Source: a virus
Taxonomy: Duplodnaviria > Heunggongvirae > Uroviricota > Caudoviricetes
IMG/VR virus record: IMGVR_UViG_2778261692_000003
Location: 1 to 40,582 of that record
Strand: one strand, 5' to 3'
Length of the DNA: 40,582 bases
Shown here piece after piece: positions 22,289 through 23,076 of this stretch (positions within the stretch are counted from its first letter, which is position 1; each line of letters opens with the position of its first letter). Position numbers and translations under genes: made by a program. Below the pieces are notes generated by a model. The model saw only the letters and a program-made list of their open reading frames with translations, did not search any database and was not told where the DNA came from.

Positions 22289-22753
22289 GTCTTACCCCCA
22301 ATAAGGGGATTTGCTCTATTTAATTAGGAATAAGGTCGGTTACTGATAGAACAAATCCAGGCTACTGTGTTTAGTAATCAGATTTGTTCGTGACCGATAT
22401 GCACGGGCAAAACGGCATGAGGTTGTTAGCGCAGCCTCTTGCCACCCGCTTTCACGAAGGTCATGTGTAGAAGGCCGCAGCGTAACTATCACTGATGAAT
22501 TCAGGATAGCCAGTAGCTACGGCTCAGTTTGGGTTGTGCTGTTGCTGGGCGGCGATGACGCCTGTACGCATTTGGTGATCCGGTTCTGCTTCCGGTATTC
22601 GCTTAATTCAGCACAACGGAAAGAGCACTGTATGTTGCCGGGCCAGATGTCGGCTGCACAGGGAGTCATTGCCGACCCACGCCCTAAACACACTCGTAAA
22701 TGCGCTTAGGGTTGACTCCCCTGGTATCCAGTTATTCCCCGGCTGGGGATACT

Positions 22754-22801
22754 CCGCGCGACGCTAATGCGTTTCGTCCCTCATGGACTCGTCAGGCGCG
22801 C
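22754..22801 (-). ncRNA. Candidate type I hammerhead self-cleaving ribozyme in the late-operon leader
   Basis: Minus-strand RNA reads GCGCGC CUGACGA GUCC AUGAG GGAC GAAA CGC AUUA GCG UC|GCGCGG. All invariant core positions are present: C3 U4 G5 A6 G8 A9, G12 A13 A14, A15.1-U16.1 and C17. Stem II is 4 bp with G10.1-C11.1, stem III is 4 bp and stem I is 5 GC pairs. Predicted cleavage lies between plus-strand positions 22760 and 22759. Confidence 0.6.
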
Positions 22802-22817
22802 AATGCTCTTACCTGTT
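22802..22817 (-). repeat. 16-bp direct repeat copy A (5' strand of the distal clamp hairpin)
   Basis: AATGCTCTTACCTGTT on the plus strand, identical to 23053-23068. In the minus-strand RNA it pairs with 22612-22629 (about 15 bp with one mismatch and one bulge). Confidence 0.8.
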
Positions 22818-23052
22818 GTGTACCCATTATTAATCACACCGGGCCAGTGCGCCGAATTTGTTTACAAGGAGTCGGAAGACCTTGCTGACTTACAGGCTAT
22901 TACGCCGCCATCAGAACAACATCATCGTTTGCATTTATCTTTGTGGTCAGTTTCTAAAAACCCGCAAAGTCGCCAACTCTGACGAAAACTATCGTTGTGC
23001 TGCCACAACGATAAGAGCACTCGGTGCATTTAAGCCAAGCCCCATAAGGGAG

Positions 23053-23068
23053 AATGCTCTTACCTGTT
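23053..23068 (-). repeat. 16-bp direct repeat copy B (5' strand of the proximal clamp hairpin)
   Basis: AATGCTCTTACCTGTT on the plus strand. In the minus-strand RNA it pairs with 23004-23020. Confidence 0.8.
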
Positions 23069-23076
23069 ACACAGAT

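Follow-up and report, generated by a model that had tools for sequence, protein, structure and literature searches.

What do two similar hairpins, each closed around a different RNA, do in the late leader of a lambdoid phage? This question is raised by IMG/VR virus record IMGVR_UViG_2778261692_000003 (positions 1 to 40,582; this whole stretch of 40,582 nucleotides (nt) is called the window here), a lambdoid phage whose late region lies on the minus strand; its coordinates below are read on that strand. A preliminary description of this DNA had pointed out that the 16-mer AACAGGTAAGAGCATT occurs twice on the minus strand, at 23068-23053 and 22817-22802, and that each copy could pair with a downstream partner, which would give two duplicated clamp hairpins of ~15 bp with different cargo RNAs. 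Both 16-mers were located there, the partner strands were found at 23021-23004 and 22630-22612, and the enclosed segments measured 30 nt and 172 nt; their places are as claimed. The duplexes are real, but their lengths have to be corrected: stem 2 has ~19-20 bp, and stem 1 is probably reduced in its context to an inner ~10 bp. In the same way, there are indeed two copies with differing cargo RNAs, but both belong to a stem family widespread among phages and did not result from duplication on the spot.

It is fairly probable that the clamps are individual copies of a cassette for RNA processing in phages, that is, a stem of ~20 bp around a nearly arbitrary cargo. Such a double-strand processing cassette is the best explanation of the locus because several kinds of evidence combine: (i) covariation; (ii) cargo exchange; (iii) transcribed context; and (iv) the small RNA LPR2, a product of the lambda copy. 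Three features had been overlooked in the preliminary description: the phage-wide stem family, a transfer-messenger RNA (tmRNA)-like module between the stems, and the stem-free occurrence of the unit formed by a hammerhead and the domain next to it.

The stem family is present in lambdoid, P1-type, T7-like, N4-like and Jersey-like phages, as well as in phage tRNA operons. BLAST searches against phage records divide the region into separable modules, whose common element is the stem CACAACAGGUAAGAGCAYUG ... CAGUGCUCUUUCCGUUGUG around differing inserts. When IMG/VR was scanned with the 5' arm, >120 contigs were recovered, among which the inserts were of dozens of unrelated kinds; when the element is defined by its two base motifs only, 150 elements are obtained, with 104 distinct cargos of 29-180 nt which fall into 54 unrelated cargo clusters. 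A scan by structure only gave 127 stems in 1.98 Mb of related loci versus 0 in shuffled sequence.

These stems are RNA helices with a fixed base and an inner 8 bp that covary freely. The base (ACAAC + bulged A + GGUAA opposite UUUCC-GUUGU) scarcely varies. For the inner arms, 33 combinations were counted (152 elements, base-motif definition), 29 of which form 7-8 of the 8 pairs; every combination of unrelated sequence pairs, for instance GCUGCUUG/CAGGCAGC, GGGAGCUG/CAGUUUCC and UGACACUU/GAGUGUCA. The outer 5 bp are also compensatory between contexts (CUAUC/GAUAG vs ACAAC/GUUGU). When the constructs were reduced to the arms, with GAAA in place of the cargo, 97.8% of the cells were paired and eight pairs were changed on both sides, a result reached by 0 of 500 shuffles; slid controls were 37-63% paired. 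Finally, G.U pairs are found in the stems on the transcribed strand only.

The context of the elements points to a transcribed RNA. They are placed right behind tR'-like terminators or within phage tRNA clusters, always on the tRNA strand. In a T7-like phage, the element is located after the capsid-gene terminator. In a P1-type phage-plasmid, it begins 3 nt past tRNA-Thr and is followed by two further stems and then a terminator. The E. coli plasmid NZ_CP027590 (P1-type; L325, 2498-3350) has three stems and a terminator in ~850 unannotated bases after tRNA-Thr, and ~264 E. coli plasmid matches are of this P1-type tRNA-operon kind.

Lambda carries exactly one copy (44788-44865), 8 nt after tR', as a 78-nt stem-loop with a 39-nt cargo, in agreement with the single lambda clamp, enclosing a few tens of nt, of the preliminary description. 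Folded alone, the lambda stem forms the proposed helix (minimum free energy (MFE) z = -3.7). The published Northern probe for LPR2 is complementary, without any mismatch, to lambda 44816-44850, an interval made up of the cargo and the start of the 3' arm: the lambda copy is the source of LPR2. As described in a preprint, LPR2 is one defined band of ~63 nt which belongs to the lytic cycle, co-purifies with Hfq and adjoins the 6S RNA. It is shorter than the 78-nt stem-loop, which implies cuts within the stem; counted from the GG to the CC of the conserved base, the lambda segment has exactly 63 nt. The Hfq association and the discrete small RNA product refer to lambda only.

In the window, the arms of stem 2 are identical to those of lambda. 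The lambda stem and stem 2 are each 19-20 bp long and contain a single bulge and a single mismatch, which in stem 2 are a bulged A and a U.U mismatch, and stem 2 folded alone with its cargo forms the helix (MFE z = -4.7). The arms of stem 1 differ from the lambda stem at few positions, with pairing preserved, and its cargo is of a type also present in Klebsiella phage MK54 and P1-type phage-plasmids. Stem 1 folded alone forms the proposed helix as well (MFE z = -3.1; -3.07 before rounding). When it is folded with its real downstream context, the inner ~10 bp are kept and the outer strand GUUGUG pairs with a perfect downstream CACAAC, probably its better partner, in a separate neighbouring 10-bp hairpin on which the residual stem 1 is stacked.

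The cargo of stem 2 comprises a putative type-I hammerhead and, downstream of its predicted cut, a double-pseudoknot RNA. The hammerhead core is complete (CUGACGA ... GAAA, an A15.1-U16.1 pair and a GUC triplet ahead of the cut), stems II and III are closed, stem I is open, and the three-way junction appears in the MFE fold. Among the homologues, N7 is C, A or U and the cleavage triplet is GUC or GUA; two pairs of stem II show compensatory changes, while conservation and complete pairing are seen in stems I and III. With 96% identity, the hammerhead cargo is also carried by a T7-like Enterobacter phage, where it lies between the capsid gene and the tail-tubular gene. The type-I hammerhead form was found in 83 viral (IMG/VR) contigs (L230-L308), mostly directly upstream of open reading frames (ORFs). 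The pattern is CUGANGAGUCC-N5-GGACGAAACGC and stem I has 5-6 bp; in many of these environmental phage contigs an ORF start follows at once, and a few of the hammerheads adjoin tRNA-like sequences.

The segment beside the hammerhead had been presented as a GC-rich, pseudoknot-capable domain, and covariation supports both of its pseudoknots. Pattern scans provided diverged homologues of the whole unit (L261, L314, L320, L317 and L323). The structure that was tested, on a 12-sequence alignment, consists of three hammerhead stems, three nested helices and two pseudoknots: 97.5% of the cells are paired, 16 pairs are changed on both sides, and 0 of 500 shuffles score as high, while slid controls are 33-45% paired. 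As regards the individual helices, GUCGGC/GCCGAC is a true pseudoknot with compensatory changes (GUGUGC/GCACAC in L317), and an additional one that had escaped attention, GCCGGG/CCCGGC, covaries to GGCGGG/CCCGCC and GAAGGG/CCCUUC. The helix CAGGGGAGUCA/UGACUCCCUG, described as 10 bp with a bulge, turns out by covariation to be a continuous one of 9 bp, GGGGAGUCA/UGACUCCCU; CCCUAA/UUAGGG extends to 11 bp; and GUAUCC/GGAUAC is neither supported nor contradicted, because it is invariant among the homologues. In L317, the unit stands without a stem within an array of 17 tRNAs, where 3 nt separate its end from tRNA-Gly. Hammerhead and domain are, therefore, one self-contained RNA gene, both ends of which would be made by processing in L317. 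In Rfam searches at gathering thresholds and at permissive E-values, neither the stems nor the double-pseudoknot domain matched a family, the only matches being sub-threshold ones to hammerhead and tmRNA models.

Between the two cassettes lies a tmRNA-like module of ~173 nt (module A), with a resume-codon context, a tag frame, a stop-codon helix and two pseudoknots. The Rfam models tmRNA_permuted (26.3 bits) and beta_tmRNA (17.4 bits), both sub-threshold, align at 22954-22900, that is, over the tag region only. The tag, ANDDVVLMAA, whose coding stretch continues ...GCG UAA UAG, resembles the E. coli tag ANDENYALAA, and its stop codon is in a hairpin loop. Among 108 copies there are 14 tag variants, always of 10 codons plus stop, with the pattern AN[DE]x..L[AM][AV]A and acidic residues at positions 3-4; the frame is apparently under peptide-level selection. 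The four stems of the two pseudoknots are fully paired in all 82 parsed copies, with 3-12 compensatory variants each, and RNAalifold recovers the nested ones. A tmRNA-type upstream PK1 equivalent was not established in module A, where the RNAalifold pairs in the 5' region never vary. Folded alone, the module gives a nested MFE structure that does not reach significance (z = -0.8). The stretch 22993-22801 recurs with 88-93% identity in Jersey-like siphoviruses, N4-like Gamaleyaviruses, Felixounaviruses, Erwinia phages and others. In siphoviruses, the module heads a small operon (promoter, module, stem, tRNAs) antisense to the tail genes.

Module A falls outside the tmRNA family as this is defined. 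ARAGORN called neither a tmRNA nor a tRNA in the window or overlapping the elements, and no tRNA-like domain in any copy in the window and 100+ related loci, while the genuine tmRNA of L127 was found. Neither ARAGORN nor the Rfam tmRNA models gave an acceptor end, CCA, G3.U70 pair or T-arm linked to the module. In four phage lineages (C1, L061, L115 and L204), a sigma-70 promoter abuts the 5' end of the module (GAUAG) and, in consequence, these RNAs have no 5' acceptor strand. The tmRNA of L127 (1376-1695; small unrelated phage contig) is of the permuted (two-piece) type and has the tag ANDNIAYEEFALAA. It shares with module A an identical resume-codon context of 16 nt, and AUAGUUUUCGUC at the 5' side of the module corresponds to, or at least resembles, its AUAGGUUCGAC. 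The 5' end of module A, UAGUUUUCGUC (22993-22983), has 11 bp of complementarity to E. coli ssrA (L446) at nt 95-108, GACGAAAACUA, tag codons 3-6; the duplex has -15.2 kcal/mol, which 5 of 300 composition-matched shuffled 14-mers equal. The complementary core GUUUUCG is invariant and the extension is lost in some variants. Because some variants lose part of the pairing, this complementarity is to be taken as a lead only.

The model that we favour adds to these observations the parts that we infer: the nuclease, the cut positions, the activity of the hammerhead, and the functions of the cargo, tmRNA-like and double-pseudoknot RNAs. The cassette would be transcribed in the Q-antiterminated late leader in this phage, and in phage tRNA or non-coding RNA operons elsewhere. 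A double-strand-specific nuclease, most likely the host RNase III, would cut at the conserved base, in line with the preliminary description, in which the duplex was a plausible RNase III substrate; RNase III sites in the lambda late transcript were reportedly described by Daniels et al. (1988). Its cuts would release the cargo hairpin as a small RNA, the lambda example being the Hfq-bound LPR2, and the RNA between two cassettes would be freed from the mRNA. Four products are expected: (i) a ~55-nt hairpin RNA from cassette 1; (ii) a ~190-nt tmRNA-like RNA from the inter-cassette stretch; (iii) after hammerhead cleavage between C22760 and G22759, a 5' piece of ~60 nt, terminated by a 2',3'-cyclic phosphate, and the double-pseudoknot RNA, ~135 nt long and starting with a 5'-OH, both of which stem 2 could still hold together; and (iv) the S-R-Rz late mRNA with a new 5' end. 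A 2',3'-cyclic phosphate on the 5' piece is established hammerhead chemistry.

Several points weigh against this model. The conservation of the arms is overstated because the loci were retrieved with an exact 19-mer arm pattern. The ~63 nt of LPR2 are a gel estimate. The RNase III sites reported by Daniels et al. (1988) may be elsewhere in the leader. The stem 1 duplex, as folded in context, is probably too short for classical RNase III. The loose sequence needs of this enzyme do not by themselves explain a near-invariant base motif, and at the base of the stem a protein that recognises the sequence, or else a tertiary contact, may play a part. The hammerhead reaches 24.7 bits against a threshold of 34 with Rfam Hammerhead_1 (RF00163; E = 0.0024 in a 1.15-kb search), and the score stays below the threshold because stem I is short, only 5 bp. 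The covariation of the double-pseudoknot RNA rests on ~5 independent lineages. A wider proposal, according to which unrelated enterobacterial phages share an RNA cassette platform, a processing stem of fixed sequence whose interchangeable small RNAs are exchanged by recombination, is tentative and rather doubtful. It holds that the payloads here are two new host-aimed RNA classes: (i) a tmRNA mimic lacking the tRNA-like domain, with a selected tag and a 5' end complementary to the tag codons of host ssrA; and (ii) a double-pseudoknot RNA with an exact 5'-OH made by the hammerhead.

Exchange of cargo between phages would also be expected if the arms were DNA-level recombination linkers, i.e., module boundaries through which co-infecting phages swap the segment, the hairpin being incidental. 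The arms are near-identical in unrelated phage families around wholly different cargo; the hammerhead cargo (lambdoid vs T7-like phage) and the tmRNA-like module (across siphoviruses, N4-like podoviruses and others) keep the high identities given above; and a nearby segment carries a 'boundary sequence' annotation in phage CUS-3. In any case, linkers are an unlikely explanation: the inner arms change compensatorily, with G.U pairs on the transcribed strand only, the orientation is always that of the transcription unit or tRNA strand, and the lambda copy yields a discrete RNA. Recombination in the arms probably spreads the cargos as a consequence of a conserved RNA element, and not as its purpose. 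The discrete lambda RNA also bears on the proposal that the stems remain uncleaved and act as insulators or stabilisers, which shield tRNAs, tmRNA-like RNA and late mRNA from RNase E and exonucleases and keep the folding of the modules independent. The great stability of the hairpins (-27 to -33 kcal/mol) and their location between structured RNA genes suit this role, and the hammerhead by itself would already part upstream from downstream RNA. Nevertheless, LPR2 is shorter than the lambda stem-loop, which implies cuts inside the stem, and a fixed base with a bulge and a mismatch resembles a recognition or cleavage site and not a generic stable helix, so that uncleaved stems seem distinctly improbable.

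A further reading sees in the whole arrangement a two-piece (permuted) tmRNA in disguise: both the stem and the hairpin GUUGUG/CACAAC would derive from the acceptor stem, breaks made in the loop by the hammerhead or, at cargos with T-arms, by RNase P would generate the termini, and module A would be the coding piece for trans-translation with a phage-specified tag. Its appeal lies in the tag frames conserved as peptides, the resume context that module A has in common with genuine phage permuted tmRNAs (L127), its similar 5' segment, the T-loop-like motifs beside an arm in 13 cargos, and the fact that a loop-cutting hammerhead would yield a stem-joined two-piece RNA. However, no acceptor end, CCA, G3.U70 or T-arm is tied to the module, on which ARAGORN and the Rfam tmRNA models fail; promoters abutting GAUAG leave no room for a 5' acceptor strand in the four lineages named; most stems occur without module A; and the hammerhead 5' piece cannot be aminoacylated because it ends in a 2',3'-cyclic phosphate. 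A disguised tmRNA is, hence, very improbable, and the processing cassette is the reading retained here.

The features of the late leader are collected in the table. Relative to lambda, the preliminary description had proposed an insertion of ~0.45 kb in the gap between Q and S. Alignment confirms the insertion, but its size is ~0.39 kb: lambda aligns at ~96% at both ends of the tR'-to-S interval and covers just 48% of it, and lambda-like leader sequence picks up again after the 3' arm of stem 2 (22612). A copy of this prophage with 99.4% identity is present in E. coli EC6622. The ~250 nt immediately upstream of S (22290-22540) are 95-98% conserved in hundreds of phage records, and the equivalent segment is annotated 'bsq3; boundary sequence' in phage CUS-3. 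The small RNAs (sRNAs) PasA and PasC of Stx phages occupy an analogous site, directly upstream of the holin gene.

Table. Features of the late leader of the window and their coordinates.
Feature	Position	Strand	Basis or remark
Q	23972-23349	(-)	Late region
pR'-like promoter	23306-23278	(-)	Promoter scan
tR' terminator of late leader	23134-23077	(-)	96% identity to lambda around 44758
Stem 1, 5' arm GUAACAGGUAAGAGCAUUC	23052..23070	(-)	Present in isolated MFE fold
Cargo 1, 30 nt, UCCCUUAUGGGGCUUGGCUUAAAUGCACCG	23022..23051	(-)	Enclosed by stem 1
Stem 1, 3' arm AGUGCUCUUAUCGUUGUG	23004..23021	(-)	Sequence match
Hairpin AUCGUUGUG-GCAG-CACAACGAU	22991..23012	(-)	Competes with outer stem 1; terminator-like score; then UUUU
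tmRNA-like module A, 5' end GAUAGUUUUCG	22821..22993	(-)	Sub-threshold Rfam tmRNA models; 108 copies
Tag frame GCA AAC GAU GAU GUU GUU CUG AUG GCG GCG UAA (ANDDVVLMAA*)	22900..22932	(-)	14 variants
Two H-type pseudoknots of module A	22822..22884	(-)	Covariation in 82 parsed copies
PKa	hairpin 22884-22865, loop CCGA pairing UCGG 22855-22852	(-)	Module A
PKb	hairpin 22851-22835, loop GCCC pairing GGGU 22826-22822	(-)	Module A
Stem 2, 5' arm CACAACAGGUAAGAGCAUUG	22801..22820	(-)	Sequence match, MFE fold
Type-I hammerhead (putative)	22755..22800	(-)	Predicted cut C22760/G22759; Rfam Hammerhead_1; covarying stem II; MFE junction
Double-pseudoknot RNA, downstream of predicted hammerhead cut	22631..22759	(-)	Covariation with diverged homologues
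H1	22752-47 with 22729-24	(-)	Double-pseudoknot RNA
PK1 (GCCGGG/CCCGGC)	22743-38 with 22642-37	(-)	Double-pseudoknot RNA
H2	22721-13 with 22668-60	(-)	Double-pseudoknot RNA
H3	22711-22682	(-)	Double-pseudoknot RNA
PK2 (GUCGGC/GCCGAC)	22676-71 with 22654-49	(-)	Double-pseudoknot RNA
Stem 2, 3' arm CAGUGCUCUUUCCGUUGUG	22612..22630	(-)	Sequence match
Holin S start	22288	(-)	Then R and Rz

Other observations were made around the stems of related loci. A conserved hairpin, GUGAAUGCGCAGGCUGAUGCGC, stands just 3' of the 3' arm in 36 of the 150 elements (e.g., L002, L014, L029). Downstream of module A, a second stem type with variable cargo, CCCAC-CAAU-GAGAGC ... GCUCUC-AUUC-GUGGG, was found in L126, L148, L149, L197, L220 and L226, behind which come UAACAACGGGCAUGUCGCCUUAGUAAAUCCC, a segment that is conserved, and GCUCCACGAAACGGAGC, a small hairpin; long module arrays can, therefore, be present in lambdoid late leaders. 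The 13 cargos with T-loop-like motifs (e.g., L131, L126, L194) have T-arm-like hairpins, GGUUCGAAUCC and GGGUUCAACUCCC, adjoining one arm, some with two of them; these might direct RNase P or tertiary contacts, and ARAGORN called no tRNA in them. One 85-nt cargo, AGCGGUUCGAUUCCGCUUGACUGAUGAGGCCGCAAGGCGCGCUGG...GAGAAACCC, contains CUGAUGAG ... GAAAC with a spacing unlike that of the canonical hammerhead, and may be a hammerhead variant or a chance resemblance. In L042 (9535-9610), a CUA-anticodon phage tRNA (tRNA-Pyl according to ARAGORN), likely an amber suppressor, belongs to a six-tRNA cluster ~1 kb from a stem element. Above-threshold Rfam matches to STnc100 and int-alpA RNA, in L184 1118-1331 (-), L029 264-330 (-) and L261 5537-5601 (+), are unrelated to the stems.

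A number of other identities were considered and rejected. The STnc100 match in L184 and the Pas sRNAs are different prophage sRNAs sited elsewhere (Pas sRNA preprint). The 3' arm UGCUCUUU agrees with rrn boxA over the initial 8 nt of the latter, an identity rejected because the matching segment covaries and base-pairs. A CRISPR-like repeat-spacer array does not fit, the arms being inverted rather than direct and cas genes absent; a purely DNA-level element, such as a miniature inverted-repeat transposable element (MITE) or an integron attC site, is opposed by the G.U pairs of the transcribed strand and by the RNA product. The resemblance of GGUAAGAGC to a tRNA D-arm or to RNase P J11/12 is a likeness over a stretch too short to test. 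For the GC-rich domain, the topology of a hepatitis delta virus (HDV)-like fold does not fit; the hairpin ribozyme match AGUCAACC comes without the internal loops; and the likeness to group-I P3/P7 topology consists in strand order, with nothing further supporting it. A genome-collection scan with the 16-mer tag pattern gave chance matches only among the matches listed, and the searchable literature contains neither the arm sequence nor the tag peptides.

If the stems are processing cassettes, they would provide a general phage route to make and exchange small RNAs, and phage sRNAs could then be found by position, not by sequence. The double-pseudoknot RNA is conserved, supported by covariation and without a family, and its size suits structural and functional work. 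Module A, in turn, raises the question of phage interference with, or use of, ribosome rescue.

As regards known systems, RNase III processing stems occur in the intercistronic hairpins of phage T7, in the flanks of 16S and 23S rRNA, and in the intervening sequences of Salmonella 23S rRNA. Like them, the stems described here, with 19-20 bp in lambda and in stem 2, are long imperfect duplexes, with a bulge or mismatch, which enclose or separate functional RNAs in a polycistronic transcript; in the rRNA intervening sequences, too, the insert is variable and horizontally mobile. They differ in having a base that is fixed across phage families and in that the cargo seems to be the product. GOLLD and ROOL are large ornate phage-associated RNAs found beside tRNA genes. 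With them, these elements share the character of structured non-coding RNA by phage tRNA clusters, with a variable periphery and a conserved core; but there is no sequence or Rfam match to them, and the units here are small and modular, each with a stem of its own as its boundary.

A role of phage hammerheads in the cutting of long transcripts is a published view (Perreault et al., 2011, PMC3088659), with which the position of the type-I form just upstream of ORFs agrees, and the hammerhead of the window resembles those of phage and prophage intergenic sites in its complete core, closed stems II and III, open stem I and phage intergenic site. Unlike known type-I hammerheads, it lies inside the loop of a probable processing stem, is always fused to the double-pseudoknot RNA, has a short stem I and scores below threshold. 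Module A shares with two-piece tmRNA (RF04321, RF01850) the GCA resume codon in an AUAAAU context, a 10-codon tag, a stop codon in a hairpin loop and pseudoknots after the tag; it differs in its length, in having two pseudoknots and in lacking the tRNA-like domain (acceptor stem, CCA and T-arm). The converse case is mycobacteriophage DS6A, whose tmRNA retains just the tRNA-like domain (PMC4131195). The phage tmRNA-like genes in the searchable literature are the mycobacteriophage and Bacillus phage G cases only.

In short, there are precedents for parts of this locus: RNase III-type stems, LPR2, phage hammerheads and tmRNA. Three combinations are absent from Rfam and the searchable literature: (i) a cross-family scaffold with hypervariable cargo; (ii) a hammerhead-linked double-pseudoknot RNA; and (iii) a tmRNA-like module without the tRNA-like domain. 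The closest relative is the lambda copy, with the same arms and the same placement 8 nt after tR' in a Q-dependent late transcript, whereas this phage has two copies with differing cargos; the LPR2 preprint gives no account of the stem scaffold, its covariation, the hypervariable cargo or the spread to other phage families. The lambda late leader is among the best-studied stretches of DNA, yet the LPR2 stem is a scaffold common to lambdoid, P1-type, T7-like, N4-like and Jersey-like phages.

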